Source of the DNA: Ostreococcus lucimarinus
Lineage: Eukaryota
Direction: 5' to 3' (one strand)
DNA length: 64,000 nucleotides
Assembly (NCBI GenBank): GCA_000092065.1
Contig: CP000589.1
Positions 1-64,000 of the stretch are shown piece after piece (positions within the stretch are counted from its first letter, which is position 1; each line of letters begins with the position of its first letter). The notes under the pieces were generated by a model. It ran no database searches, was not told the origin of the DNA, and was given only the letters and a program-made list of their open reading frames with translations. Made by a program: the position numbers and the translations under genes.

Positions 1-2452
1 CCCGTGTTTTCTCAGAGAATGGTGGCGCCGTGTTGTCGCCACCAGTGGATTGTGTCTGTCCAGGCAAGTAGTTTGCGTTAGCAGGTACGAGCGCGCCGAA
101 CGGCTCGTAGTTCTTCAGAAGCCTCTCTAACTGTTCTGGACTTGCGTGTGTTGGAATCGGGGGATGATACAAACCCAAACGCCCTTTCGACATCAACTCG
201 CTCTTCTCGCACTGGTACATGCGACACAGGAATGCTGTGCGAACTCGTCGTGATCGAGTCTCTGTTACTTCTGGCGATTGTGTGACTCGCATTTCGGGCA
301 TCTCGTGGTCTGTTTTATCGTCCGTCGACCCGCCGTGTAGACCCGCGTTTTTAACGAAAGAAACATCATCTGTGGAATTCGCGAGCTGAGTCTGCGCAAT
401 ACACAATCGCCTGATTCTTCGAATGGGAATGAGAGCGACCGCCCAGATACCAATGTTCGCCCAGAGTGTGGTAGAGATTCCGTCATCAAAGCGATAAAAC
501 ACAAGACAGCCAAACAGGATTTGCAGCAGGTTGATCACTCGAGCAGTAATCGTGATGCCGAAGGAGTCCTCGCGGAGTTTCGGCGGCGCCGTGGTGAGAT
601 ACAAACCTTGGTACTTTTTGCTCCAGTACAGCACGAATATCCCAAAGACGCCTACGGCGTAACTCACGGGAAGTGCCGGCGCGTAAATTGCCGATAGACC
701 GAGAATCTTGAGCAACTCGGCGTACGAACGCGCCAGCTGGAAAGCTGGAGGTTGCACAAGACTCTCTTGCATCGACAACGTCTTCGACATTGGGGCGAGT
801 ATTTTCACTTGGATAATGTGTTTGATGTTCATGTTCCTTAAAGGTAACAAGAGAACGTTGAACACTTGCAAATAGAACGCATATTCGACGAAACCACCGG
901 GAACGTACCAGTTACACACACCATCTGCCTTCGACGAGCATCGATTGGTGATGATCGGAACGACGACGTAGTTGAGCAAGTTAACAAACGTCAACGTCGC
1001 GATCAGCATGTTTGTCTCAATCGTTTTCGTCTTATAAACCTCAAGTTGCGCGAGATAAACCGTCAATCGATCCAGCAAACCGTTAATGATAACCACTACG
1101 AGTGACGTGGAAGATGCGACGAGTTGCAGTCTGATGGACGAAGTCGTCGAAGCCGTAGATTGGAAAGCGACCTCGTTCGTAATGGTTTCGAGTTGATTAC
1201 TACGCAAGACCTCGAAAACGTACTGAATAACGCCTCCAACGCACAAAGCGCCCGCGAGCACGAACTTCGCCCCGATGGCGGTAGCCACAACCTCCCAGTT
1301 ACTGTCTCGTCGACGAAGGTGCTGCCAGTTGATATCGCTCGGTTCGGGCGCGCGAGTGACGATGAGTCGACGTCCGTTAAAGTCTGGTGAATGTTTGCCG
1401 GTGCATCGATCGATGATCGATTCTCCGTAATCGCCGCAGTGATCTTCGCAACAGTTGATCGCGTGCTGCTCGTAATTGAACGTCACCACGGCGCTCCCCA
1501 GATGCGAGTTGCCGTTTTCCCCGAGCGCCACGACCTTCGCCTTGAGTTCGGCAATTTTTGCATCCAACTTTACTAACGCTTCTCGCGTTGGTTTCGTACC
1601 TTTGAGTGCGATCATTCGATACAATTGTCGACGCAATAAGATGGATTTATTGATCTTCTCGTCCATGTTCGCGCCTTCGTTGTCATCGAGAATCGCCTGA
1701 ATTTCGTTTCTTCGCTGCACGGCGTTTTTGATTTCTCTCTCCATAGTCACGAGTCGTCGAGTGTTCGTAAGATGACAAACAGAAACAACCTCGCCGTAAT
1801 GCGAGAAAAAATCCGCGATTTGCTGTCGAGTCCACTCGTTCCCTTTTCCGAGCCCGGTGACGAGCACCGAGTAGTCGCTCGCGGTCACCACACTCGACTT
1901 GATGATCGCCGCCGCCGTCGCGCGATTACGAGTGTAAAACATGTCAAAGAGTAAAAACACCACAGTCACGACGATTGAAACCGCCTGAAACTCCTTAGGC
2001 GTTTTATTCACAGTGGCGGCGACCCGAGGTACGCAACACACCGCGGTCTGCGTCGTCGTCAGCACCTTCTCGAGCGTGCACGGATAGTGCGTCTGGCACG
2101 CATTCGTCGCGTCAAACGTCCCGATCGCTCCTTCGTAATCGCATCGCATCGGGCAGTTATAAAAACTCGCCAACGTCGGGACTCCACACCTCGACCCTTG
2201 ACTCGTGCTCAGCACAAAGCCGCCCGTCTCGTACGTCCTCGCGCACGTCGTCGTCGCGTCGGCTCCCGCCGTCGCGTCCCACCCCGTCACCGCGTACGAC
2301 GCCGTGAACGCCCTATCCGTCACGTTCGTCGTCAACGAGTACGCGTTGATTCCCGCGAGCACCACCGCGAGCAAACCGAACTGCAGCACCGTGTCCAGGT
2401 ACAGCGCCAGCGACACGCTGCTCGCGCCCACGCGTCTGTGACTCGCCGTCAT
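1..2452 (-). CDS. CSC1/OSCA/TMEM63-family (DUF221, RSN1_7TM) stress-gated calcium-permeable cation channel; 5'-complete, 3' end runs off the window start (>=817 aa)
   Basis: My own minus-strand translation. It is absent from the ORF track because no stop codon lies inside the window. ATG at 2452..2450 and open to position 1. N-terminal TM helix (VSLALYLDTVLQFGLLAVVLAGINAY). Cytosolic RRM-like domain with family signatures SDYSVLVTGLGKG and TRAPEPSDINWQHL, then about 7 hydrophobic helices (e.g. LSAIYAPALPVSYAVGVFGIFVLYW, LQILFGCLVFYRF). Cys-rich predicted external loop between TM1 and TM2. Confidence 0.6.
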   Translation of the reverse strand, partial: MTASHRRVGASSVSLALYLDTVLQFGLLAVVLAGINAYSLTTNVTDRAFTASYAVTGWDATAGADATTTCARTYETGGFVLSTSQGSRCGVPTLASFYNCPMRCDYEGAIGTFDATNACQTHYPCTLEKVLTTTQTAVCCVPRVAATVNKTPKEFQAVSIVVTVVFLLFDMFYTRNRATAAAIIKSSVVTASDYSVLVTGLGKGNEWTRQQIADFFSHYGEVVSVCHLTNTRRLVTMEREIKNAVQRRNEIQAILDDNEGANMDEKINKSILLRRQLYRMIALKGTKPTREALVKLDAKIAELKAKVVALGENGNSHLGSAVVTFNYEQHAINCCEDHCGDYGESIIDRCTGKHSPDFNGRRLIVTRAPEPSDINWQHLRRRDSNWEVVATAIGAKFVLAGALCVGGVIQYVFEVLRSNQLETITNEVAFQSTASTTSSIRLQLVASSTSLVVVIINGLLDRLTVYLAQLEVYKTKTIETNMLIATLTFVNLLNYVVVPIITNRCSSKADGVCNWYVPGGFVEYAFYLQVFNVLLLPLRNMNIKHIIQVKILAPMSKTLSMQESLVQPPAFQLARSYAELLKILGLSAIYAPALPVSYAVGVFGIFVLYWSKKYQGLYLTTAPPKLREDSFGITITARVINLLQILFGCLVFYRFDDGISTTLWANIGIWAVALIPIRRIRRLCIAQTQLANSTDDVSFVKNAGLHGGSTDDKTDHEMPEMRVTQSPEVTETRSRRVRTAFLCRMYQCEKSELMSKGRLGLYHPPIPTHASPEQLERLLKNYEPFGALVPANANYLPGQTQSTGGDNTAPPFSEKTR

Positions 2453-4394: not shown

Positions 4395-4617
4395 GGCGAC
4401 TGCGATGTTTCTGACGCCGGTGCGGAATGTGACCGAGCGCGGTGCTTCGACGCGCGCGCGCGCGCAGAACGCGCGCGCGCAGAACGCGCGCGCGCGTCGA
4501 TGCCGACGCGCGGATGCGCCGCGGTCGTCGGCGCGTTTCGCGAGCTCGGTCGATTCGGCGGTGCGCGCGCCGCGCAGTGGCGACGCGGTTCGCGCGCTAT
4601 CGACTGTTTCTATTCTA

Positions 4618-6021
4618 TTACAAGTACGCTTTACGAGCTCGAAGCGCGCCCACGACGGATGGCTTGAACCCGGTAGGCTGCGCGTCGAGCTTTTGCACCA
4701 CCATGATCTTTTCTTTCAACGACGCGAGCCTGATTCGACCGCAAAACTCTTCGAGACGCTTGCGAATGGAGGCTTCGATGGACTCTCGTTCGCGAGCGTC
4801 GGCGGCGACGTACGCCGTCGCCGTCGTTCCGGCGAAGGCGTCGAGCGGAGCGTTGCGAAGATACGCCGACGCCGCGCCGGTGGGATCGGATATCTGAATC
4901 TTTACTCGCCATAGCGGCGGGCGGGCATCCTCTTGAACTTCTAACCTCCCAGTCCTCGTTATCCACGCGTGCACGGTGGCCATCGCGGATTTATCGTCGA
5001 GCGACGCTCGCGCCGCCCGTAAACATCCGAGGTACGTCCACAGCCCTTTTACCGCGCTCTCGTTCACGCGTTGCACCAACGCCATCGTACGATCGTCTAA
5101 CGCGGGCGCAGACGACGACGGCACAGACGATCGTTCGCGACTGGAGAAAATCGGTTCGCCCGACGCTTGAAGGCTCGATCGCGTCGATCGCCGCGGAGAC
5201 GCGACCGCGCCCATCGCCCTCGCGTCGCCCGCGAGCGCGTCGTCCTCGCCGCCGATCTCCAAAATATCCACCACTTGTGAGTCTGGCACGACCCCGCGCG
5301 CCGCATTCGGCGTCACCACCACCCTCGGCGCCGCGCCCTCGACGTCCCTCGCGCCGTCGAGCGCGCGCGCCTCGTTCGCCTCCTCCTCCCACGCCGCGCG
5401 CGTCGCCGCCTTCACGCGATCGCCCTCTCCCACCCCAGGTCGATTCGGCGCTTCAAACACCGCCATCGCTCGCGTTCTCGCGCGCTCTAACCGTTCCACG
5501 ACCCCCCCCAACAGTTCCGTCGTCGCTCGTTCCAGCCAAATCGTTCCGTCTTCGCCGACGTACGGATCCGTCAGCGCGATTTTCGCCCCCGCTCGCATCC
5601 CCTCTCCGCTCAGCCGCGGCACCGCTTCGTACTCCACCGCGAACATCCTTCGCGCGCCGTCCGTCAGGCTCAGCGTCAGGCATCGCTGCGCGTGCGATCG
5701 TCGACACTGTTCGTCCGCGCGTCGTCGTCGCGCGTCGCGCCCGACGTCTCGCCACTCATCCATCTGCACCACGAATCGTCCTCGCGCGCGCGCGCCCGCG
5801 ACGCGCGGCGCGCGCGACAGTCCCCCGCCCAGCGCGCAGACGTTAAAGTCGCTTCGCAGCGCCGCGCTCGCGCACGCGCGCGTCGTCGTCGCCGTCGCCG
5901 GCGTCGCGACGTCCATCGCGCGCGCGACGACGTCGCGCCACGCCTCGCGCGTCTCCGGCCATCCCGCGGCGTCGCGCGCGAGCCACGCGTCGAGGGCGTC
6001 GCGCGACGTCGCGCGCGCCAT
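4618..6021 (-). CDS. hypothetical protein, possibly RMI1 (RecQ-mediated genome instability 1: DUF1767 + OB folds)
   Basis: C-terminal 467 aa of track ORF 4618..6846; the upstream 275 aa are Arg-rich GC-frame artefact. First ATG at 6021. Trp-spaced N-domain (DALDAWLARDAAGWPETREAW). OB-like segment RCLTLSLTDGARRMFAVEYEAVP resembles the RMI1 OB1 motif MLMLQLTDGIVQIQGMEYQP; second OB-like LWRVKIQISDPTGAASAYL. Motif recall only. Confidence 0.4.
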   Translation of the reverse strand: MARATSRDALDAWLARDAAGWPETREAWRDVVARAMDVATPATATTTRACASAALRSDFNVCALGGGLSRAPRVAGARARGRFVVQMDEWRDVGRDARRRRADEQCRRSHAQRCLTLSLTDGARRMFAVEYEAVPRLSGEGMRAGAKIALTDPYVGEDGTIWLERATTELLGGVVERLERARTRAMAVFEAPNRPGVGEGDRVKAATRAAWEEEANEARALDGARDVEGAAPRVVVTPNAARGVVPDSQVVDILEIGGEDDALAGDARAMGAVASPRRSTRSSLQASGEPIFSSRERSSVPSSSAPALDDRTMALVQRVNESAVKGLWTYLGCLRAARASLDDKSAMATVHAWITRTGRLEVQEDARPPLWRVKIQISDPTGAASAYLRNAPLDAFAGTTATAYVAADARERESIEASIRKRLEEFCGRIRLASLKEKIMVVQKLDAQPTGFKPSVVGALRARKAYL

Positions 6022-6071
6022 CGCGTCGCGCGTCGCGTCGCGTCGCGTCGTCGTCGGTCGTCGCGAAGTGC

Positions 6072-6095
6072 GGCGAAAGTTTAAACTTTGGCGCA
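6072..6095. promoter_or_regulatory. 14-bp perfect palindrome AAAGTTTAAACTTT overlapping an E2F-consensus TTTGGCGC in a divergent promoter
   Basis: Read directly: ggcgAAAGTTTAAACTTTGGCGCag at 6072..6095, the only AT-rich island in an otherwise CpG-saturated 130-bp spacer between ATGs at 6021 (-) and 6151 (+). Confidence 0.3.
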
Positions 6096-6150
6096 GCTGT
6101 CGGCACACGCGCGCGCGCGCCGGCGACGCACCGGACGCCGCGCGCGCGCG

Positions 6151-6783
6151 ATGCGCGTCGCGACGCTCGCGCGCGGCGCGGCGCGGCGCGGCGCGGCGTC
6201 GGCGCGCGCGCGCACGACGTACGCGACGAACGAGGACGACGCGCTGTCGAATCTGCTCACGCCGAGACAAAAACTGCGCCGCGCCGCGCTGCTGGCGCTG
6301 ACGACGTGCGCGGCGGGGGCGTACGTGTCGTACTTTGCGACACCGATCGTCGCGGACGGGAGCGCGCGGTCGTGCGCGGCGCTGACGCGGTCGAGGGATG
6401 GGTTCATGGCGCGCGCGGGCGCGGCGCGGGCGCGCGCGATGTGGGCGTTGGGCGACGTCGGGAACGCGCGAGGCGCGCTTCTGGCGAACGACGCGCTGGG
6501 AGCGTGCGTGGAGACGGCGTGCCGACGAGGGATGGACGCGAGGGCGCGCGAGGCGGCGAGCGCGATGTTGAGGGACGCGTGCGAGGACGCGCGCGGAATC
6601 GAGGCGCTGCGACGGTGGAGGACGACGTTGGAGACGTGCGCGCGAGAGCGCGGCGACGGCGAGCGACGAGAGTGGTGGTGGACGAGGACGCGTGCGACGA
6701 GCGGCGAGGACGCGGGCGATGGCGGAGGGTTGGACGCGACGCGCGCGAACGTGGCGGCGACGTTGGAGAAGTTGCGATCGTGA
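6151..6783 (+). CDS. hypothetical protein (210 aa), basic N-terminus plus one TM helix
   Basis: Track ORF 6088..6783 starts at TTG; first ATG at 6151. Coding-like GC3. TM segment ALLALTTCAAGAYVSYFATPIV. No recognisable domain. Confidence 0.3.
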   Translation: MRVATLARGAARRGAASARARTTYATNEDDALSNLLTPRQKLRRAALLALTTCAAGAYVSYFATPIVADGSARSCAALTRSRDGFMARAGAARARAMWALGDVGNARGALLANDALGACVETACRRGMDARAREAASAMLRDACEDARGIEALRRWRTTLETCARERGDGERREWWWTRTRATSGEDAGDGGGLDATRANVAATLEKLRS

Positions 6784-6897
6784 GGCGGTTCGCCAAACGG
6801 CGCGAGGGCGCGGCGGCGATCGGTAGGTTCGCCTTCGGACAGCCATTCCGGTGTATGATTATTAACTAAACTGTGTTCTAAGTGCTAAGTACGCGCG

Positions 6898-8187
6898 CTA
6901 TTTGCTCTCGACGCGCGCGCGTCGCTCCTCGAACGTCGCCTCGGTGGGTCTGTCGCTCAGGCGCTGGTGACGAGATTTCGCAACGCTCACGTTTCCCGCG
7001 CACGTCACGGCTGCGAGTTCGCGCGCGAGCGCAGAGCCATCGCGATCGTTGGCACTCGCAGCGCGCGTACGGTGCGCGCGCGAGCGCGCCAGATGCGCCC
7101 AAATTTCCTCTTGAATCGCCGCGCGAACGCGTTGCGCGTGCATCTGGCCGGCGACGTGCGTCTCGAGTTGCGCCAACGCGCTGTCGCTCACGTGCATGCG
7201 CTCGGCATCCAAACGCGCCTTGTCGTACCCACTTCGCCAAAGTAAAAGCGCGTGCTCGGGCGCCATCGGGTACTGCGGCTTTCTCGGCGTGCGTTCGAGA
7301 TCGAGCAACTCGGTCACGACGGTCGGAGATTCGTGACCGAGACCAACCATAAATAACACAGACGCCATGCACCGCACTTGATGCCACAAGAATGCGGTGC
7401 CTCGAACGTTGATGTACATCAGTTTTCCATCGTGCGACTCCTCGATCGTGCACTCGAGCACGTTTCGCGTGAAACTCTTTACGTTTTCCGCGTCCATGCG
7501 ACAAAAGTTTCTAAAATCGTGCACACCCTCAAACGCGCGCGCGGCCTCGCGCATGGCGCCCAAGTCTAATCCATTCGTCTTTTCAAAGAAGTATTTGTAC
7601 TGGCGCCACTCGCAATCGAACCGGGCGTTCAACTCATCATCCACCGGCGCCCATCCCAACGCTCGCACGTCGTTCGGCAGCGCGCGGTTCAGCAGCGCCA
7701 CGTAATCTAATTCCTCATCCACGCCTTCCGCCCCGTTCGAGCGCGCGCGCAGCGTCACAATTTGTCCCAATCCCGACACTCCGCGATCGGTGCGACCGCA
7801 CCGCGCGTAATCCGCGACTTTGAACACGTCGCGCGCGCTCTCCACGAGCTTCGTCTTCGCCAACGCGTCGAACAGCGCCTGTTCCACCGTCCGCGGCGCC
7901 GCCGCGTTCGCCGCGCCCTGGCTCGCGAAACCGTGATAATCCCATCCCAGGTAGCACACGTGCAGGGCGATCTTGCGCGCGGCGTGCTTGCTGAAGTCGA
8001 ACGCGCGATGTTTCGAGACGCCTCGGGCCGGCGGCGTCGGCGGCGAACGAAGCGCCGCGACGCGCGCGGCGATGCGCTCGACTCGACGCGGGTCGAGCGA
8101 CGCGGCGGTGCTATCGCTCGTCGACGCCGCGAGGCACTCGGCCTCGATGTCGTCGAGCGCGCGCTCGATGTCGTCGAGCGCGCGCAT
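6898..8187 (-). CDS. PUS3: tRNA pseudouridine synthase, TruA/Pus3 (Deg1) family
   Basis: TruA motifs RKIALHVCYLGWDYHGFASQ, RCGRTDRGVSGLGQIVTL (catalytic Asp), HDFRNFCRMD, GTAFLWHQVRCMASVLFMVG. ATG at 8187..8185. Confidence 0.8.
   Translation of the reverse strand: MRALDDIERALDDIEAECLAASTSDSTAASLDPRRVERIAARVAALRSPPTPPARGVSKHRAFDFSKHAARKIALHVCYLGWDYHGFASQGAANAAAPRTVEQALFDALAKTKLVESARDVFKVADYARCGRTDRGVSGLGQIVTLRARSNGAEGVDEELDYVALLNRALPNDVRALGWAPVDDELNARFDCEWRQYKYFFEKTNGLDLGAMREAARAFEGVHDFRNFCRMDAENVKSFTRNVLECTIEESHDGKLMYINVRGTAFLWHQVRCMASVLFMVGLGHESPTVVTELLDLERTPRKPQYPMAPEHALLLWRSGYDKARLDAERMHVSDSALAQLETHVAGQMHAQRVRAAIQEEIWAHLARSRAHRTRAASANDRDGSALARELAAVTCAGNVSVAKSRHQRLSDRPTEATFEERRARVESK
8144..8185. 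repeat. perfect 21-bp tandem duplication (2 copies) in the first codons of PUS3
   Basis: tcgatgtcgtcgagcgcgcgc appears twice, head-to-tail (8144..8164, 8165..8185), encoding the duplicated peptide ALDDIER-ALDDIE. Confidence 0.8.
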
Positions 8188-21591: not shown

Positions 21592-24500
21592 ATGCACATC
21601 AAACAAGTGATCGTCGAAGGGTTTAAAACCTACCGCGAACAGACGGTGGTGGATTTCGACGACGGGTTGAATTGCATCGTCGGCGCCAACGGGTCGGGAA
21701 AATCAAACTTGTTTCACGCGATTCGGTTCGTGCTGAGCGATGTGTTCGGGAATTTGCGAGCCGAAGAGAGACAGAGACTGTTGCACGAGGGAGCGGGGCA
21801 CGCGGTGATGTCGGCGTACGTGGAGATTGTGTTCGATAACGCCGACGGACGCTTGCCGGTGGAGCGGGAGGAGGTGCGCCTGCGAAGAAATATTGGTTTG
21901 AAGAAGGATGAATATTATCTCGACAAGAAGCACGTGACGCGCGCTGAAGTGGTTAACTTACTCGAGAGCGCTGGTTTCAGCCGAACGAACCCTTATTACG
22001 TCGTACAACAAGGGAAAATTATGAAGATGGCGACGATGCAAGACGAGGAGCGTTTGGACTTATTGAAGGAGATCGGGGGCACGAGCGTCTTCGAGGCGAA
22101 GCGCAAAGAGTCCCTTAAGGGCTTGGACGAGACTAAATCGAAGCGAGAACAAGTGCAAGAGACCGTTGAGTTCATCGAAAGCCGTCTGGCGGAGCTCGAT
22201 GAGGAGAAAGACGAGTTGCAAAAGTATACCGACTTGGACAAGACGCGACGGTCTTTGGAGTACACCATTTACGAGCAAGACTTGAGTGATGCGAGAAGCA
22301 AATTGGATGAGATTGAGCAACAACGAAGCGCGACGAACGAGTCGAGCCGCGTGGATGACGACAAAATGAACACGATGAGTGAAAACTTGCGCACGCATGA
22401 AAAGGAGCTCAAGGATAGCTCGCGCGCCGCCGCGCAACTGAAGCGCGAGCTCACGACGGCGGAGGAAGAGTTGCGCGGCATCGTCGCCCGACGAACCACC
22501 GCTGAGCTGGACGTGAAAGATTTGCGCGAAACGATTCAAACCGGCGAAGAGTCGTTGGCCGGTATCGCAGGTCAAAAGACGGATGTCGAAAAGGCGACGT
22601 TGGAGACGCAAAAGAAGCTCGACGCTGTGCGTGAAAAGTATAACGCCGAAGTTGCCGTGGAAGAAGCCAAGGATCGTGAAATCGCCGAGATCGAACGTCG
22701 CTCACAAAGCTTGTACCAAAAGCAAGGTCGCAGCGAACGTTTTAAGACGAAGGGTGAACGCGATACGTGGTTGAAGAGCCAAATCAAAGACGCCACCGCG
22801 ACGAAGAAACAAAAGACGAAGGAGGTGGAGACGCTCGAAAATGACTTGAAGGAAATTCGCGCCACGCAATCCAGTGACGAGAAGGACCGCGCTTCCATGG
22901 AAGCCGAACTCATCGTTGAAGAAGAAAAGTTGGCGGATTTCGAGGCGCAGTACAAGAAGGCGATGACGGAGCGAAACGAGGCCCAGAACGCTCGCAAGGA
23001 TCTTCAGCGCAAAGACAACGAGGTCGACAACTCGCTGGCGTCTTGCGAAGAGGAAGTGAAGAAGCGAGACAAGCAGCTCGAGTTTTCTATGCCTCGTGAC
23101 CTTCAACGTGGTATGGCTGCCGTTCAGCGTATCGTCAAGGAACACAACATCGAAGGCGTGCACGGCCCTCTCATCGAGCTCATGGAGACTGACGAGCGAT
23201 TTCACAGCGCTATCGAAGCCAGCGCGGGTAATCAGCTCTTTCACATCGTCGTCGATCATGATGAGATTGGTAGTCGAGTCATCGAGTTCTTGAACAAAGA
23301 GAAAGGTGGTCGTGTTACGTTTTTGCCGCTCAATCGCATGAACCCACCGAACGTTACATACCCCGAAGGCAGTGATGCCTTTCCTCTTCTCTCAAAGCTC
23401 AAGTACGACGCAAAATTTGACGCCGCGTTCAAGCAAGTCTTTGCGCGTGTTTTGATTTGTCGGAACATTGACGTCGCCGTTTCCAAGGCGCTTTCTTCGC
23501 AACTCAACTGTGTCACCATGGATGGGGACACCGTGAGCAACAAAGGTTCCATGAGTGGTGGTTACCAAGACACGAGCCGAAGCCGAATCGCCGCCATGAC
23601 GGCGCTGCGCGAATTGAACGTTAACCGTGATGATCTCAAAGAAACCAGCGCTGGCGTGAAAAAGTCTCTCCAAGCTGCGGAACAAAAGATGTCAGCCGTT
23701 CTCGGTGATATCAGTCGACTCGAGTCGCAAAGACGTCACAGTGCTCAGCGTGTGGATCGATTAAAGCATGAGTTGCGCTTCTACGGAGACACGGGCACGC
23801 GAGCCAGCTCTCTTCTTGAACAGACGGAAAAGAGCATCGCCGTTATGCGAGCTGATATCGAACAAGTGGACACACACATCGCCGATCTGACTAGTGAGAT
23901 CGGTTCGAGTCTGGACGCAACCTTGAGTCAAGCTGAAGTTCAAGAGCTTGAAAAGCTCACCTCTCACGCGACGACGCTCAAGCAAGAAAAAGTCACCATC
24001 GCCGCTCGCCGACTCGACGTGTACACGCAGTTGAGCGAACTCCAGACGGCTCTCGAAACCAACCTGAACCGCCGTGCGAAACGCATCGCCCTGACGTCTG
24101 GCGAACTTGACATCAACAGCTTACGCGCCGAGCTCGCCAAGCTCGAAGGTCAGTTGAAGACGGTGCAAAACGACGAAGCCATCGTGCGTAAAAACTACGA
24201 CGGCATCGCGGAAAAGCTTCGAACGGTGCAAGCGAATATTGAAGCGGCGAATACAGAGATTGAAAAGCTTCGAGCGTTCAAAGAGTCGATGAGCTCGTCT
24301 TTAGGCGAACGTGAAAAGGTCATGGAAACTCTCATGTCCAAGGCTGCGACGCTGTCGCAAAAGCGCGAAGCACTTCAGAAGAAGATTCGAGAACTCGGCT
24401 CGCTTCCATCCGACGCCTTCGACCGTTACCGCGGTGAGTCGCTCAAATCCCTGCACAAGCTGTTGAGCAAAACGAACAACCAGCTGTCCAAGCTCGGTCA

Positions 24501-25221
24501 CGTTAACAAGAAAGCGCTCGACCAATACCAGCAGTTTACCGAACAGCGAGAAGAGCTCGAGAAGCGTCGTTCCGAAATTAACAAGGCGTTTGACAGCATC
24601 ACTCAACTCATCGATCATTTAGATCACAAGAAGGATGAAGCGATCGAACGTACTTTCAAACAGGTCAGCATGAATTTCAAGGACGTCTTCCATCGACTCG
24701 TCCCCGGTGGCCGCGGTGAACTCGTCATGCAACGCAAGCGCGCGGCGAACCGGGACCCGGAGGAAGAGGGCGAACCGGCGGCTAATCCGACCACGTTCAG
24801 CGAGAAGTATAGCGGCGTGAAGATCAAGGTGAGCTTCGGACAAGGTGAAACTATGCAGATGAAGCAGTTGTCTGGCGGGCAAAAGACTGTCGTCGCTGTT
24901 GCGCTCATCTTTGCCATTCAACGCTGCGATCCGATGCCGTTTTACCTCTTCGACGAAATCGACGCCGCGCTCGACCCGCAGTACCGCACCGCCGTGGCGC
25001 ACATGGTCAAAGGTCAGGCGAACAATAAGACGCAATTCATCGCCACGACTTTCCGTCCAGAAATCGTGAAAGAAGCGACTTGCATTCAAGGCGTGTCTCA
25101 CTCTCACAAGGTGTCCACAGTTCAAAAGGTCGCCTTGGAGGAAGCTCTCCAATTTGTTGGCGAAGACACCGCGCAAGTGCAACAAGTCGCTCCGACCGAA
25201 CGCGGTCCCCCGACGCCGTAG
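21592..25221 (+). CDS. SMC3: structural maintenance of chromosomes protein 3 (cohesin SMC3)
   Basis: N-terminal Walker A MHIKQVIVEGFKTYREQTVVDFDDGLNCIVGANGSGKSN...IRFVLSD. Long coiled coils. Hinge. C-terminal signature LSGGQKTVVAVALIFAIQRCDPMPFYLFDEIDAALD. Track start 21574 is TTG; ATG 21592. Confidence 0.9.
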   Translation: MHIKQVIVEGFKTYREQTVVDFDDGLNCIVGANGSGKSNLFHAIRFVLSDVFGNLRAEERQRLLHEGAGHAVMSAYVEIVFDNADGRLPVEREEVRLRRNIGLKKDEYYLDKKHVTRAEVVNLLESAGFSRTNPYYVVQQGKIMKMATMQDEERLDLLKEIGGTSVFEAKRKESLKGLDETKSKREQVQETVEFIESRLAELDEEKDELQKYTDLDKTRRSLEYTIYEQDLSDARSKLDEIEQQRSATNESSRVDDDKMNTMSENLRTHEKELKDSSRAAAQLKRELTTAEEELRGIVARRTTAELDVKDLRETIQTGEESLAGIAGQKTDVEKATLETQKKLDAVREKYNAEVAVEEAKDREIAEIERRSQSLYQKQGRSERFKTKGERDTWLKSQIKDATATKKQKTKEVETLENDLKEIRATQSSDEKDRASMEAELIVEEEKLADFEAQYKKAMTERNEAQNARKDLQRKDNEVDNSLASCEEEVKKRDKQLEFSMPRDLQRGMAAVQRIVKEHNIEGVHGPLIELMETDERFHSAIEASAGNQLFHIVVDHDEIGSRVIEFLNKEKGGRVTFLPLNRMNPPNVTYPEGSDAFPLLSKLKYDAKFDAAFKQVFARVLICRNIDVAVSKALSSQLNCVTMDGDTVSNKGSMSGGYQDTSRSRIAAMTALRELNVNRDDLKETSAGVKKSLQAAEQKMSAVLGDISRLESQRRHSAQRVDRLKHELRFYGDTGTRASSLLEQTEKSIAVMRADIEQVDTHIADLTSEIGSSLDATLSQAEVQELEKLTSHATTLKQEKVTIAARRLDVYTQLSELQTALETNLNRRAKRIALTSGELDINSLRAELAKLEGQLKTVQNDEAIVRKNYDGIAEKLRTVQANIEAANTEIEKLRAFKESMSSSLGEREKVMETLMSKAATLSQKREALQKKIRELGSLPSDAFDRYRGESLKSLHKLLSKTNNQLSKLGHVNKKALDQYQQFTEQREELEKRRSEINKAFDSITQLIDHLDHKKDEAIERTFKQVSMNFKDVFHRLVPGGRGELVMQRKRAANRDPEEEGEPAANPTTFSEKYSGVKIKVSFGQGETMQMKQLSGGQKTVVAVALIFAIQRCDPMPFYLFDEIDAALDPQYRTAVAHMVKGQANNKTQFIATTFRPEIVKEATCIQGVSHSHKVSTVQKVALEEALQFVGEDTAQVQQVAPTERGPPTP

Positions 25222-25328
25222 ATACGCACGTTAGAGAAACATTGATGCGAATGACTGTATAGATGAACCCATAGTGATACCAGTATAATGAGAAACTAAA
25301 CCATGTTACAAGTGAGCGCTACGTGATG

Positions 25329-26387
25329 CTAGTTGCTAATTTTGCTCGCTTGGAGTCGTTTTTTAATCGTGCAGTTCGCGATGAGCGCATCTAAGTCGTC
25401 CTTCCATCCCAGCATTGAGCACAGCTCGGCGACGCCGTCGTCGCACTGACCCAAGAACAACGCGTCACGATAATTTGTCGCCTCATCAAAGTCAAATCCC
25501 GTGCCCCGACCGAGCCCAGCCATCCGATATAATTTCGTGACGCGCGTGTTCTGCGCCTCGCCGCAACGTTCGAGATTAATCAAGAGCCTCGGTACGTGCT
25601 CCTTCGGCCTTTCGATCAAACCGGCGAACGGATGGACGACTAAACTCGTTCCGATGACGATGAGCAAGTCGCACACCTCGAAGTCTTTTTGCGCGCACTC
25701 GAAGAATCGACGCGGAAGATTTTCGCCAAAAAACACGATATCCGGCTTGACAAACTCGCCACATTTGGCGCACGTCATCGGCGTTCCCGCACGACACGCT
25801 CTCTCCACTTCGTAGATGTTGGCGTCGTGTCCATTCAAACACTTCGCGCTGTCGAAATTACCGTGTGCGGCGACGACTTTATCCTTCGGCAGCCCCGTGG
25901 CGCACTCCAACGAATCGATGTTTTGCGTAAAGCATCGCCGCAACAGCCCGCGGTCGTGCAACAGCTTAATGAAATAATGCGTCGGCGTCGGGGCGTAGAG
26001 CCCCGGATACAGATCCTTCGCGAGCTTATAAAACGCCTCGGGCTTCTCCCTAAAGTACCCAAGCTCGAAAATCGCCTGCGGATACGGCAAATCGTACTCG
26101 CCCAATCGCGCGTACAACCCGCGCTCGCTTCGAAAATCCGGTATCCCCGCGCTCACCGATATCCCCGCTCCCGTCATCACCACCACGTTTTTCACCCCGC
26201 CGCGCTCGATGTGCTTCGCGATCCCGCGAAGATCGAACGTTTCGAGCGCCGTCGCCGCCGCCGCCGCGCTCGACTCGCCGAGTCGCTCCGCCGCCAGGCG
26301 TTCCATGAGCTCCAGCATCTCCGTCGACTCCCGACCGAACCCGTACCCCGACGACGACGACGACGACCCGCTCGACGATGTTTCCGA

Positions 26388-38317: not shown

Positions 38318-40081
38318 TCAATCGTCGGTGAAAAATATGTCCTGGACGTGCGCGAGCGCGCGCCGGAGCTTGGTGACGTCGGCGAGGGCGTGCGCGCGCT
38401 CGATGTGGACGAGCTCGCGAGACGCGCGGAGCGCGTCGTTTTCGCGCTCCAGGCGACGGTTTTCCTCGGCGTAGCGCGAGAGGAGGCGCTCGACCTCGCT
38501 GACGCGCGTGATGACGTCGGAGGTGTGGTAGATGGAGTTGGAGACGCGCCGCTGGCGCGAGGATGGGGTTGGGCAAATGGCGGTGGAGGCGTCGGCGGCG
38601 CGCGTCAACGCGGCGATTCGACGGCGAAGCGCGCAGTTTTCTGCCCTCAATTCGTCCACGAGCGCGTCGGGAGACGCGCGCGCGTCGATGGTTTCGGTGG
38701 TGCGAGATGTGTTCGACTCGGGAATGTTCACTATGGACGTCACGCGCGCGGCGTATTGAAGCGTGCGGATGGTCTCTTCCACGTGTCGCTCGTTGGCAGA
38801 GCAGCAGGCGATCATGAGCGTCAGAGAGCGACCGCCGAGCGAATCCATCAAAAGTTTCGTGAGCTTGCTGTCGCGATACGGCACGTGTGGTGTCGTGGCT
38901 TTGGCATCTCGCGATTCGTCGGCGAGAATCGATATCACTTTGCCGAGCGCGAAAAGACTCTTGTTGATCAGGCTCGTCTCTCGCGAACCGGCGTCTTCGC
39001 TCCCGCTGTGCTTTAAACGTTCGCTCCCAGCCAAATCCACGAAAGTCATTTTCCCGCGCGTGATCTCCACATCTCCGGAATCATCGCAAGAAGCGCCGAC
39101 GTCATCGTCGCGATCACCACCACCGTTCGCGCGCGGCGCTCCAAAGTAGCGCTCGACGTGCACGGTGAGCACGGCGTGCGAGCGCGAGCTCTCGGCGTTC
39201 ATCTTGTGCGATCGCACGCGGCGTCTGGCGGCGCCCTCGCGCACGCAATCCAAAGCTTCGCCGGCGTTCGCGCACTCCCGTCGCGAGAGATTTGGAACAT
39301 AGAACCCATCACGGCTTCGCCAACGCACGCGAAGCGATTTCGACGACTCGTCCGCCAGCAAATCGATGACTTTCTCCTTGTAAATCTCGTAACTCGTGAC
39401 GGAGACGACGACCTTCGTCGGCGCCTTTTCCCCACCACCCGCAGCCTCGCGCCCGAGCGCGTCGAACAAGTACTCGATCGAGCGCCCAATAAGACCATCG
39501 TCCGATCCGACGTCATTCATCGTCGGCGACGAGGTCGACGCCGTCTCGACGTCGTCGCGCGTCGACGACGCGCTCTCGCTCGCCCCGCGTCGCGCCCCCG
39601 CGCGTCCCAACATCGTGTACGTCTTTCCGCTACCAGTCTGCCCGTACGCGAACACGGCGCTCGCGTACCCATCCAACGTCTTCATCAACAACGCCTTCAC
39701 CCCCGACACGTCGAAGAACGCGTCCTGCGTCGTCCGCGTCCCCGCGCACGGCCCTCGAAACGCCACCTTTTCCCGCTCCGCCGCGCCGCGCCGTCGTCTC
39801 GTTCGTCCTCCTCCCGCGACGCGCACCGCGCGTCCGTCCGCGCTCACCGCGCTCGGTCCATCCCCAGGGCGCACTCGCACGACGACGCGCACGCGATCGA
39901 CGCCCTCGCGCGCGTCCTCGCGCGCGTCCTCGCGCGCGTCCTCCTCCTCGCGCGTCCGTTCGGTCCTCGCCGTCGCGTCTTCCTCGCTTTCCGCGTCGCC
40001 GTCCGCCGCCGTCGTCGCGCCGTCGACGCGATCGACGCGCGATTCTTCCTCGTCCTCGCCGTCCCGCGTCGCGTCGTCCAT
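38318..40081 (-). CDS. kinesin motor protein (N-terminal motor, coiled-coil tail)
   Basis: Intact P-loop AYGQTGSGKTYTM. Switch I NAESSRSHAV. Switch II VDLAGSER. Neck HVPYRDSKLTKLL. ATG at 40081..40079. Confidence 0.85.
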   Translation of the reverse strand: MDDATRDGEDEEESRVDRVDGATTAADGDAESEEDATARTERTREEEDAREDAREDAREGVDRVRVVVRVRPGDGPSAVSADGRAVRVAGGGRTRRRRGAAEREKVAFRGPCAGTRTTQDAFFDVSGVKALLMKTLDGYASAVFAYGQTGSGKTYTMLGRAGARRGASESASSTRDDVETASTSSPTMNDVGSDDGLIGRSIEYLFDALGREAAGGGEKAPTKVVVSVTSYEIYKEKVIDLLADESSKSLRVRWRSRDGFYVPNLSRRECANAGEALDCVREGAARRRVRSHKMNAESSRSHAVLTVHVERYFGAPRANGGGDRDDDVGASCDDSGDVEITRGKMTFVDLAGSERLKHSGSEDAGSRETSLINKSLFALGKVISILADESRDAKATTPHVPYRDSKLTKLLMDSLGGRSLTLMIACCSANERHVEETIRTLQYAARVTSIVNIPESNTSRTTETIDARASPDALVDELRAENCALRRRIAALTRAADASTAICPTPSSRQRRVSNSIYHTSDVITRVSEVERLLSRYAEENRRLERENDALRASRELVHIERAHALADVTKLRRALAHVQDIFFTDD

Positions 40082-62295: not shown

Positions 62296-62664
62296 TCACG
62301 GAATCTGTCGATTATACGGTTGCGACCCCCCCAGCGCGGTTCGCTCCGCGCGCTCCGCCTTGACCCGCTCCACGATCGGCGTCAGGTAAAAATCAAACGG
62401 CGTCTGCGTCGCCTGCTCCTCCTTCGTCAGATACGAGTGTTTCATCGACAGATCGATCGCTCGCTTCAACCGCTGCGCGCGCATGTCCCGCTCCTCCGCC
62501 GTCAGCCGCTTCAGCGCCTCGCCGACGTCCAAGTCTTGGCCCTCGTCGAGCAGATCGTCGTATCGCAAGCCGTATTTCCGCAGTTCATCCCCCACCGTGC
62601 GTCGGTAGTTGACGGACATCGACTTGAGCATCGGTTCGAGCATCTTTCGCATCGCGCGCGACAT
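62296..62664 (-). CDS. QCR7: cytochrome b-c1 complex subunit 7 (14-kDa ubiquinol-cytochrome c reductase subunit, QCR7/UQCRB)
   Basis: QCR7-like GLRYDDLLDE...EALKRLTAEERDMRAQRLKRAIDLSMKHSYLTKEEQ. 122 aa from the first ATG (62664). Upstream part of track ORF is artefact. Confidence 0.65.
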   Translation of the reverse strand: MSRAMRKMLEPMLKSMSVNYRRTVGDELRKYGLRYDDLLDEGQDLDVGEALKRLTAEERDMRAQRLKRAIDLSMKHSYLTKEEQATQTPFDFYLTPIVERVKAERAERTALGGSQPYNRQIP

Positions 62665-62870
62665 GGCGCGCGTCGTCGTGTCGCGTCGCGTCGCCGGCGA
62701 TCGCGATCGCGGTCGAGTCTCGGTGTCGGTTCGAGTCACCACACGGATCATTACGTCGTTTGAGACTGTGTACCACACGGACGACGACCGCGCGACGCCG
62801 GACGCGACGCCGCGCGCGCCAGACGACGGCGCGCGGGCGACGGCGGCGCGCGAGGTCGCGCGCGCGCGCG

Positions 62871-64000
62871 ATGACGTCGTCGTCGATCGACGACGCGCTC
62901 GACGTGCGATATCGCTGCGTGGAGACGACGACGCGACGCGATGAAGATTCAAACGCGCGGGAAACGTCAACCGTCGCGACGCGCGATTTCGAACGCGCGC
63001 GCGCGCTGATGGCGCGCGTCGGACGACGAGGGGCGCGCGACGCGCGAACGATCGTCGAGGACGCGTCGACGGGAGATGGGCTCGCGCGGACGATCGCGGC
63101 GGCGGCGAAGCGAGGGATGGAGCGAGGCGAGGACTGCGCGACGATTTTCGCGCGAGGCGCGGGCGACGACGACGCGGACGCGGCGCGAGCGGTGCGGGAG
63201 ATGGGAGCGGTGGCGATGGTGGTGGATGCGATGGTGGAGTCGTGCGAGGGGATCGATCGGGGGAAGTGGGAGGTGAGCGCGACGTGCGTGGGGTGGTCGA
63301 CGAGGGAACGGGCGGGCGGCGGCGCGGTGGATTTGTTGGACGACGCGTCGGCGGGGGACGAGGGGGCGGGAGTCGGGCGAGGGATGACGGTGGTGCACGT
63401 GGAACGCGCGGAGGACGGAGTTGTGGCGTTTGAGAGCGCGATGGCGCGCGCGGATGAGGTGTTTCGCGAAGGTGCGTCGACGACGGGGCGGCACGCGGTG
63501 TTTACGTTACGCTTGAAGTTGTGGGCGGAGGCGACGACGGAGACGGATGACGAGAGCGGGCTCGCGAACGAGCCCACGGTGACGCGCGTGCACTTTGTGT
63601 TTTTGGCGCCGTACGTGCCGGCGCCGGGGGCGTTCGATGGGCGAGACAGTCGCTCGGTGGCGGCGCGCATCGAGTGCACAAAGTCGACGACGGCGATGAT
63701 GGCGGTGCTGCGCGGTTTGCGGCGAAATCAGGGGCAACGAGGGACGACATTTCGCAACTTGAACGCCTGGCGGGAATCACCCCTCACGCGTTTGATGTGG
63801 GCGAGCGGGATGTCGGAACTTCGAAGCGCCATGCTCATCGTTCTTTGCTCGGACGCGCTGCGATACGCCGTGGAGGGTGACGAAACGTCGCCTCTCGTGT
63901 TGGCACCCGGGACCGAGGGCGCGTTGAAATTCGCGTTACAACTCAAGGAACATTCGGATGATGGCGATCCCGCACCGAGAACGCGTGCGCCTCCGGTGCC
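62871..64000 (+). CDS. kinesin-motor-fold protein with degenerate nucleotide-binding motifs (putative pseudo-kinesin); 3' end runs off the window
   Basis: My own translation; no stop, so absent from the ORF track. Four kinesin landmarks in canonical order and spacing, each mutated. P-loop position CATIFARGAGDDDADAA (vs GTIFAYGQTGSGKT). Switch I GASTTGRHAVFTL (vs SSRSHAIF). Switch II VTRVHFVFLAPYVPAPG (vs LVDLAGSE). Neck-linker/alpha5 region FRNLNAWRESPLTRLMWASGMSELRSAMLIVLCS (vs [25 protein letters not shown]). ATG at 62871. Confidence 0.55.
   Translation, partial: MTSSSIDDALDVRYRCVETTTRRDEDSNARETSTVATRDFERARALMARVGRRGARDARTIVEDASTGDGLARTIAAAAKRGMERGEDCATIFARGAGDDDADAARAVREMGAVAMVVDAMVESCEGIDRGKWEVSATCVGWSTRERAGGGAVDLLDDASAGDEGAGVGRGMTVVHVERAEDGVVAFESAMARADEVFREGASTTGRHAVFTLRLKLWAEATTETDDESGLANEPTVTRVHFVFLAPYVPAPGAFDGRDSRSVAARIECTKSTTAMMAVLRGLRRNQGQRGTTFRNLNAWRESPLTRLMWASGMSELRSAMLIVLCSDALRYAVEGDETSPLVLAPGTEGALKFALQLKEHSDDGDPAPRTRAPPV

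Follow-up and report, generated by a model that had tools for sequence, protein, structure and literature searches.

A putative kinesin-derived head without nucleotide-binding motifs on a conserved helical stalk in Ostreococcus

The 64,000-nucleotide stretch of Ostreococcus lucimarinus contig CP000589.1 (assembly GCA_000092065.1) analysed here, referred to as the window, ends inside a gene that an earlier note, made from the sequence alone, described as a candidate pseudo-kinesin, i.e. a kinesin-fold gene in which all three nucleotide-binding motifs have degenerated. The open reading frame (ORF) opens on the + strand at the ATG at position 62871 and meets no stop before the window end, giving 376 complete codons through position 63998. 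It is missing from the program-made ORF list because it runs off the window end, as had been remarked in that note. The downstream extension proposed there recovers the complete gene as a single 904-codon ORF on the near-identical metagenome contigs L001-L009, on which the gene calls begin at the same start as ATG 62871 and which show two synonymous differences from the window within the 1130 nt in common. The parts that lie past the window end (the remainder of the Pro-rich linker, the stalk and the C-terminal YVSPAWLHDNSWQ motif) were read from these metagenome contigs. The 904-aa protein is laid out as a head of ~365 aa, a conserved Pro-rich motif (PAPRTRAPPVPTPTK), a low-complexity linker and a helical stalk of ~430 aa. 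Public records in the collections queried name it only as 'hypothetical protein', and no Pfam domain is recorded or was found for it. We present evidence that its head probably descends from a kinesin motor domain and that the gene has been maintained by selection.

All strings on which the earlier note based its reading (GAGDDDAD, TTGRH, FLAPYV, RESPLTRLM and MLIVLCS) are present in the ORF from ATG 62871, and the elements of the head are set against their kinesin counterparts in Table 1. The canonical kinesin cited in that note as a contrast serves as such: at positions 38318-40081 (-) the window carries a 587-aa ORF for a KIF12-like kinesin with a PF00225 match at E = 2.3e-82 and intact GQTGSGKT, SSRSH and DLAGSE. 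The loss of all three motifs in the pseudo-kinesin is read both from its sequence and from its alignment to a hidden Markov model (HMM). The former P-loop (ex-P-loop), GAGDDDAD, lacks the Walker A Lys and Ser/Thr of GQTGSGK[ST]. At switch I (NxxSSRSH), TTGRH retains the His alone, SSR being replaced, and other lineages read AAAHH, AAAYH, VADHH or AVERH. At switch II (DxxGxE), no lineage retains the Asp, the Gly or the Glu; they have given way to a β7/ex-switch II motif that is itself nearly invariant (12 of 19 columns).

The block RESPLTRLM...MLIVLCS is a conserved match to kinesin, as the earlier note had it, but it corresponds to L12/α5-β8 and not to the neck; no neck-linker-like sequence follows the α6 equivalent. 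The latter, with 16 of its 30 columns invariant, lies outside the significant alignments and is a putative match to kinesin α6 by position and pattern. With respect to charge, the head is acidic except in L11-α4-L12-α5, its sole net-positive stretch, where the net charge is +4 to +6 in six of the seven lineages.

Table 1. Coordinates of the pseudo-kinesin gene, its head elements and the adjacent features, with AlphaFold2 (AF2) elements and the pooled ratio of nonsynonymous to synonymous substitution rates (dN/dS).
Feature	Positions	Strand	Kinesin counterpart	Basis or remark	AF2 element (aa)	Pooled dN/dS
Pseudo-kinesin gene, 5' part	62871..64000	+		1130 nt, codons 1-376 of 904		
α1 end and β3 equivalent, MERGEDCATIFAR	63117..63155	+	LeGYnaTiFAYG		helix α1 68-85, strand β3 89-94	1.2 (α1-β3)
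Ex-P-loop GAGDDDAD	63156-63179	+	position of GQTGSGKT	aa 96-103, between β3-like strand and α2-like helix	loop	1.7 (aa 95-108)
α2 equivalent, GAVAMVVDAMVES	63204..63242	+	dGiIpRSi.YLF	hhalign partner	helix α2 102-124	0.22
β4-DLL block KWEVSATCVG...AVDLLDD	63264..63344	+	f.V.vSy.EIYNE.v.DLL	hhalign	β4 133-143	0.00 (β4, residues 128-150)
Ex-switch I TTGRH and β6 HAVFTLRLKLW	63480..63524	+	SsRSH over TTGRH, siltvhv over AVFTLRL	hmmsearch, hhalign; TTGRH at 63480-63494, aa 204-208	β6 207-218	0.16 (switch I-β6)
β7 and ex-switch II, TRVHFVFLAPYVPAPG	63582..63629	+	vsfvDLAGSE over VHFVFLAPYV	hmmsearch	β7 237-245	0.00
FLAPYV	63600-63617	+	position of DLAGSE	aa 244-249		
α4 equivalent, ARIECTKSTTAMMAVLRGL	63663..63719	+	ET..INKSLftLGkVIsaL	hmmsearch, hhalign	α4 260-285	0.05 (L11-α4, residues 256-285)
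L12/α5 equivalent, WRESPLTRLMWASGM	63768..63812	+		best BLASTP match to window kinesin; hmmsearch, hhalign	α5 292-311	0.00 (α5)
RESPLTRLM	63771-63797	+		aa 301-309		
β8 equivalent MLIVLCS	63831..63851	+	tlMIaciSP	aa 321-327; BLASTP, hmmsearch, hhalign		0.12
α6 equivalent, TEGALKFALQLKE	63912..63950	+	EETlsTLrfA.RAk.I		helix α6 346-364	0.29
Pro-rich motif start, PAPRTRxPPxPTPTK	63969..63998	+		continues past window end		
Intergenic region pseudo-kinesin/QCR7	62665..62870	.		206 bp, divergent genes		
QCR7 (cytochrome bc1 subunit 7) gene	62296-62664	-		protein identical to XP_001419785.1, O. lucimarinus CCE9901		

Standard profile scans do not see a kinesin in this head. Pfam was scanned with the window protein and four family members at E ≤ 10 and with three full-length proteins at E ≤ 1, and no family was matched; the comparison with PF00225 by HMMER, proposed in the earlier note to confirm the motor fold, therefore came out negative at E ≤ 10. 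Membership of PF00225 takes a profile score of at least the gathering score of 29.3 bits, and even a purpose-built kinesin HMM reaches just 5.8-9.1 bits. For this directed test, the HMM was built from 57 motor domains and run with all filters off and one sequence per run. Five of the seven orthologues scored 9.1, 8.0, 7.9, 5.8 and 4.3 bits (E = 3e-5 to 1e-3), the best at 9.1 bits with E = 3e-5 and L007, of which the protein is identical to that of the window, at 5.8 bits with E = 3e-4. Four orthologues were each shuffled 1000 times, and in no case did a shuffle attain the score of the real sequence. The register of the alignments is the expected one: SRSH falls on TGRH (xxxH across orthologues), vsfvDLAGSE on VHFVFLAPYV (VHFVxLAPYV), iNkSLltLG on CTKSTTAMM, iNkSLltLGkvisaL on CTKSTTAMMAVLRGL and the kinesin α5 block on WRESPLTRLM. 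BLASTP against the window kinesin places its best high-scoring segment pair on WRESPLTRLM..MLIVLC (α5-β8) at E = 0.046. Profile-profile comparison by hhalign of the family with kinesin gave P = 0.017 for an alignment that runs colinearly over 195 columns between α2 and β8 (P = 0.014 in a local run), with a score of 25.8 against 14-16 for reversed-profile nulls. Colinear similarity across the α4-L12-α5-β8 half is in this way found by hmmsearch, by its shuffles and by hhalign. In the N-terminal third, the best local HMM matches of four orthologues are all colinear (β1, α1-β3, α2) and marginal; those of orthologues L019 and L014 set VHGRDSAVFAL on leGyaatvfAY (independent E of 0.013-0.03).

An AF2 model of the head was built from a five-sequence alignment. 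In addition to the elements listed in Table 1, it contains β5 (173-177) and α3 (180-203), so that its elements follow the kinesin order α1-β3-loop-α2-β4-β5-α3-β6-β7-α4-α5-α6. A Foldseek search of the model against the whole PDB returned 176 matches at E ≤ 1e-3; kinesin motors fill the first 50 places, with a best E of 9.4e-7 over 260-300 columns. A poor model should match at random, and these matches are not random. With modest confidence, the predicted structure of the head can be described as a kinesin motor fold, a three-layer α/β/α arrangement with kinesin element order. A single-sequence AlphaFold prediction (predicted local distance difference test, pLDDT, of 37.6) gave no significant Foldseek match, kinesins still being predominant in the list. 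The kinesin-fold origin put forward in the earlier note thus gains support from the directed HMM with its shuffles, from hhalign and from Foldseek.

Orthologues were searched by exhaustive phmmer among 1.84 billion representative proteins, which returned seven matches, all of the pseudo-kinesin family, and by a metagenome pattern scan, which returned 20 loci; together with the first six loci these make up about seven Ostreococcus-type lineages. A word-index homologue search with the head and with the family profile found same-species fragments only and missed the full-length orthologues. Identity between lineages in the conserved domain is 50-97%, or 50-64% without the close sister L010. The complete copies are all ~900-940 aa long and share the same architecture, and every full-length orthologue (six lineages) has an intact ORF of ~900 codons; the seventh lineage (L026/P0003) is represented solely by contigs truncated at the 5' end. 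Wherever a locus has sufficient flanking sequence, the genes run in the order CTP-transferase, QCR7 (-), pseudo-kinesin (+) and MutS-like (+), and because this order is identical the copies are positional orthologues. Divergence among the lineages reaches at least the level of a genus, since the window kinesin and its orthologue in O. tauri share 64% identity. The comparison with other algae suggested in the earlier note has two outcomes: the gene is present in about seven Ostreococcus-type lineages, but at single-sequence phmmer sensitivity no counterpart was found in Micromonas or Bathycoccus. An ancestral kinesin subfamily for the head was likewise not found at the search depth reached.

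At the ex-P-loop site, the lineages read GADDDDAE (L010), GDDAFDAS, GTRGAAAE and GDDGGGKS. The acidic P-loop of the earlier note therefore holds in O. lucimarinus and in its sister L010, but not in the other lineages, and the site has a dN/dS of about 1 or more. The sequence FWLR-GDDGGGKS-DWTM is found in L011, L015, L016 and L020, which represent one lineage (aa ~153-165 of the trimmed ORF). It satisfies the Walker A pattern GxxxxGK[ST] and parallels kinesin FAY-GQTGSGKT-YTM, and this is the sole lineage with such a match at the site; the chance of a Walker A match there across the lineages is ~0.7%. In this lineage, switch I and switch II are no better preserved than elsewhere in the family. 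We regard GDDGGGKS as a probable Walker A relic, which would be an independent pointer to a kinesin origin. In L016 (864-4016) and L020 (3185-6337) the frame is open for ~130 codons further upstream, to 1051 aa; this extension is probably spurious, because the upstream sequence differs in the sister contigs L011 and L015. Two public proteins of the gene, P0006 and P0005, carry systematic R->C/W, A->V, H->Y, P->L/F, T->M and S->L substitutions, which most plausibly reflect a database artefact, with C-to-T converted (bisulfite-type) reads having been assembled and translated, and not a variant allele.

Selection was estimated by the Nei-Gojobori method in three independent close pairs (L007/L010, L014/L019 and L011/L023). 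In this order of pairs, dN/dS is 0.93, 0.72 and 0.80 over the first ~130 codons, 0.07, 0.09 and 0.21 over the rest of the head (residues ~128-365) and 0.10, 0.05 and 0.15 over the stalk, for which the pooled values are 0.08-0.13. The small windows of Table 1 carry wide errors, but the two halves differ strongly, and they do so in each of the three pairs. Residues 1-108, the ex-P-loop included, lie at ~0.7-1.7. Nevertheless, this fast N-terminal part is still coding, because the indels in the 5' coding sequence are multiples of three, unlike those in the upstream intergenic region. An internal start, with the N-terminus as 5' untranslated region, was considered and rejected: there is no conserved Met upstream of the β4 block and the indels are in-frame. 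Polymorphism among eleven variants of the 904-aa protein amounts to 3.7 variable sites per 100 aa in residues 1-108, 1.2 in residues 109-365 and 0.4 in the stalk.

Judged by these sequences, the ex-P-loop is best read as an unconstrained relic and not as a re-engineered loop. The decay is specific to the nucleotide-pocket side of the head, and the ex-switch II/α4/L12/α5 side and the sheet core are under very strong purifying selection. The dN/dS analysis called for in the earlier note thus confirms purifying selection over residues ~128-365 and the stalk, with values of ~1 in the N-terminal part. The preference of that note for a repurposed over a decaying motor domain is sustained by the dN/dS values, the synteny and the presence in about seven lineages; it does not extend to the N-terminal ~108 residues, which are near neutral and in that part decaying.

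The Pro-rich motif that follows the head has 10 of 20 columns invariant among the six full-length lineage representatives. Cyclin-dependent kinase (CDK) sites have the general consensus [ST]-P-x-[KR]; the TPTK of the linker fits it, which suggests cell-cycle control. In the stalk, residues 477-868 contain two Pro/Gly and ~40% charged residues, and JGI auto-annotation labels stalk fragments 'chromosome segregation ATPase'. A long, helical and highly conserved stalk is consistent with a dimerising coiled coil. It had no match in the PDB at E ≤ 0.01 and nothing meaningful among the tails of 120 kinesins (best E = 0.031), and a crude heptad score did not discriminate. After the stalk, all lineages share the C-terminal motif Y[VT][ST]P[AS]WL.D.SWQ (7080-7130 (-) on L001). 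It matches nothing in Pfam or the PDB and may be a partner-docking peptide.

The head-to-head arrangement of QCR7 and the pseudo-kinesin gene is kept in all lineages, and the 206-bp divergent region between them (62665..62870) is presumed to be a bidirectional promoter. Directly downstream of the pseudo-kinesin gene, L001 encodes an 827-aa MutS_III/MutS_V protein (4443-6926, -). This MutS-like neighbour diverges as fast as the pseudo-kinesin, with 47-50% identity between lineages, compared with ~79% for QCR7 and the CTP-transferase. Shadow ORFs lie over the head at 62585-63679 (-, 364 aa antisense) and 62609-62944 (+, out of frame), another at L001 9721-10002 (-) is called as a 93-aa gene on JGI contigs, and many further ones occur across the window. 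The long antisense and out-of-frame ORFs over the head are most likely artefacts, because stop codons are rare in sequence of 66% GC. The G+C fraction is 0.51-0.54 at window positions 1-2000 and 22001-26000 and 0.58-0.71 in the rest of the window. As for the window kinesin, its O. lucimarinus reference XP_001419776.1 is recorded as 'predicted protein, partial' with 343 aa, against 583 aa in metagenome calls; the reference model is apparently cut short.

Taken together, we consider it likely that the 904-aa protein consists of a head that derives from kinesin but is catalytically dead and independent of nucleotide, mounted on a stalk that dimerises, and that it is conserved under selection. The homology to kinesin and the kinesin fold of the head are held with modest confidence; dimerisation, microtubule binding and regulation we infer from them and from the conserved parts. 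In the proposed mechanism, the N-terminal ~365 residues would descend from a kinesin motor domain without ATPase function, and the stalk would dimerise and display two nucleotide-independent heads. These heads might hold microtubules, or another partner, statically via the conserved basic α4-L12-α5 surface, so that the protein would serve as a tether, crosslinker or scaffold that does not move, with possible regulation by way of the PAPRTR..PTPTK motif of the linker. In kinesins, α4-L12-α5 together with L11 and L8 forms the tubulin-binding face. The microtubule face is proposed here because the α4-L12-α5 segment is the most constrained and the sole net-positive part of the head.

Several observations weigh against this interpretation, and three of them, namely the lack of a Pfam or PDB sequence match, the low pLDDT and the low hhalign probability, also feed the view that the resemblance is due to chance, the head being a lineage-specific globular domain unrelated to kinesins and both the matches and the AlphaFold topology arising from biased composition. 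No kinesin was recovered by unbiased sequence search, i.e. by Pfam at E ≤ 10 or by phmmer and profile hmmsearch against the PDB, of which the latter two returned one weak unrelated match (2raf, E = 0.12). The hhalign probability is only ~3%, and the N-terminal third alone against kinesin gives P = 0.18 without colinearity. One of 40 block-shuffles equalled the real hhalign score; this null is leaky because it retains 15-column motif blocks, and the nulls relied on are the reversed profiles for hhalign and the shuffles for hmmsearch. The structure prediction proposed in the earlier note did put kinesins on top, but from a model of low confidence, with a mean pLDDT of 39.7 and template modelling (TM) scores to kinesins of 0.3-0.45, and because AF2 may use the same weak signal, the structural evidence is not wholly independent of that from sequence. 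The N-terminal third evolves near neutrally, so the kinesin fold may by now be incomplete. Arg301, at the 'YR' position of α5, is Gly in two lineages. For a chance resemblance, one would nonetheless have to accept that the real score is never attained by the shuffles of four orthologues, that the alignments are colinear and in register, that the PDB-wide structure searches are topped exclusively by kinesins and that a candidate Walker A relic lies at exactly the predicted site; we regard this explanation as improbable. A decaying, unexpressed pseudogene of a former kinesin is far less probable still. The near-neutral values of residues 1-108 would fit it, and so would the ease with which long ORFs arise in DNA of 66% GC, as illustrated by the antisense ORF at the same place. 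The intact ORF recurs in six full-length lineages, however, always in conserved synteny, with a dN/dS of 0.05-0.2 over ~700 codons in three independent pairs and with in-frame indels only. Moreover, with ~55% identity between lineages the gene has diverged no further than its MutS neighbour. It is on the dN/dS values, the in-frame indels, the polymorphism pattern and this MutS-like divergence that the pseudogene reading is excluded.

The remaining alternatives accept a kinesin origin and differ in what the protein does. It could have ceased to be a microtubule protein, its conserved surface being re-used for another partner in a coiled-coil scaffold elsewhere in the cell. The most invariant motifs (LAPYVPxPG at ex-switch II and SPLTRLMW) are indeed new sequence and not retained kinesin residues, the canonical α5 Arg is not invariant, and Smy1p is described as a kinesin-11 relative that presumably does not move along microtubules (PMC3387196). 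Against these points stand the coincidence of the constrained region with the kinesin tubulin-binding elements α4/L12/α5 and its net positive charge in all but one of the seven lineages, and we hold such re-use to be somewhat unlikely. Alternatively, instead of homodimerising, the stalk could pair with that of one among the few catalytic Ostreococcus kinesins, as in Vik1/Cik1, the dead head providing an additional microtubule foothold, independent of nucleotide, that tunes the motor. This would refine a dead, kinesin-derived head on a dimerising stalk rather than contradict it, and non-catalytic partner heads of a real motor are known from Vik1/Cik1 (PMC4338441). It appears unlikely in view of the N-terminal position of the pseudo-kinesin head, as Vik1/Cik1, in common with their kinesin-14 partner, have the head at the C-terminus; no kinesin partner was identified, the stalk bears no meaningful similarity to the 120 fetched kinesin tails, and the tail of the window kinesin measures only ~130 aa.

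The concept of a dead kinesin is already known; what is new is an unannotated pseudo-motor eroded past HMM recognition, with a clean regional selection map and a putative Walker A relic in one lineage. Kinesin inventories drawn up from HMM scans can miss such eroded members, which bears on minimal-cytoskeleton reasoning for picoeukaryotes. If the kinesin-derived reading is true, the family would capture a motor domain mid-erosion, with a Walker A in one lineage, a drifting nucleotide half and a frozen tubulin-face half, and the dN/dS map and the relic would amount to a natural dissection of the motor parts that are needed after ATP turnover is abandoned. Ostreococcus is the smallest free-living eukaryote and has a very reduced microtubule apparatus, in which the spindle has been reported to be built through just one nuclear tunnel (PMC3603444). 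Should the head have kept its microtubule binding, the protein would be a candidate for a structural part of the smallest spindle known. One could speculate, with little confidence, that this genus-specific, ATP-independent kinesin relic is a structural part of the minimal Ostreococcus microtubule apparatus, either as a static crosslinker or anchor or as a Vik1-like second head.

Few non-catalytic kinesin heads have been found (KIF26, Vik1/Cik1 and Costal2), mostly in animals and yeast. Among these, Costal2, like KIF7, is a kinesin-4-derived scaffold, with which the Ostreococcus protein may be compared. The parallel with KIF26/Costal2-type dead kinesins drawn in the earlier note is apt in kind, but the Ostreococcus domain is more eroded, to the point that PF00225 is blind to it. 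Kinesin-11 (KIF26A/KIF26B, Smy1p) likewise combines a kinesin-type head at the N-terminus with a long tail and has lost IFAYGQT/P-loop and DLAGSE. KIF26B shows no ATPase activity and lacks IFAYGQT and DLAGSE, yet it is still microtubule-associated (PMC3387196), and by analogy this is the behaviour that may be proposed for the Ostreococcus head. Unlike kinesin-11, the Ostreococcus head has no PF00225 match at E ≤ 10 and a near-neutral N-terminal third, its tail is a continuous helical stalk and its known distribution covers Ostreococcus-type lineages only. The protein cannot be placed in kinesin-11, its sequence being too diverged for a motor-domain tree.

The motor homology domain of Vik1/Cik1, the partners of the yeast kinesin-14 Kar3, resembles the Ostreococcus head, as modelled, in a kinesin-like fold without a nucleotide-binding site. 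The polarity is opposite, however: Vik1/Cik1 carry their heads at the C-terminus, after the coiled coil, whereas the Ostreococcus protein begins with the head and has its stalk on the C-terminal side. KIF7 differs in being a recognisable kinesin-4 that keeps its nucleotide site (PDB entries with AMPPNP and ADP), while no intact nucleotide motif is left in the Ostreococcus protein. The KIF12-like kinesin of the window shares the genome and the arrangement of an N-terminal head with a helical tail, and is set apart from the pseudo-kinesin by intact motifs, a short tail and orthologues across eukaryotes.

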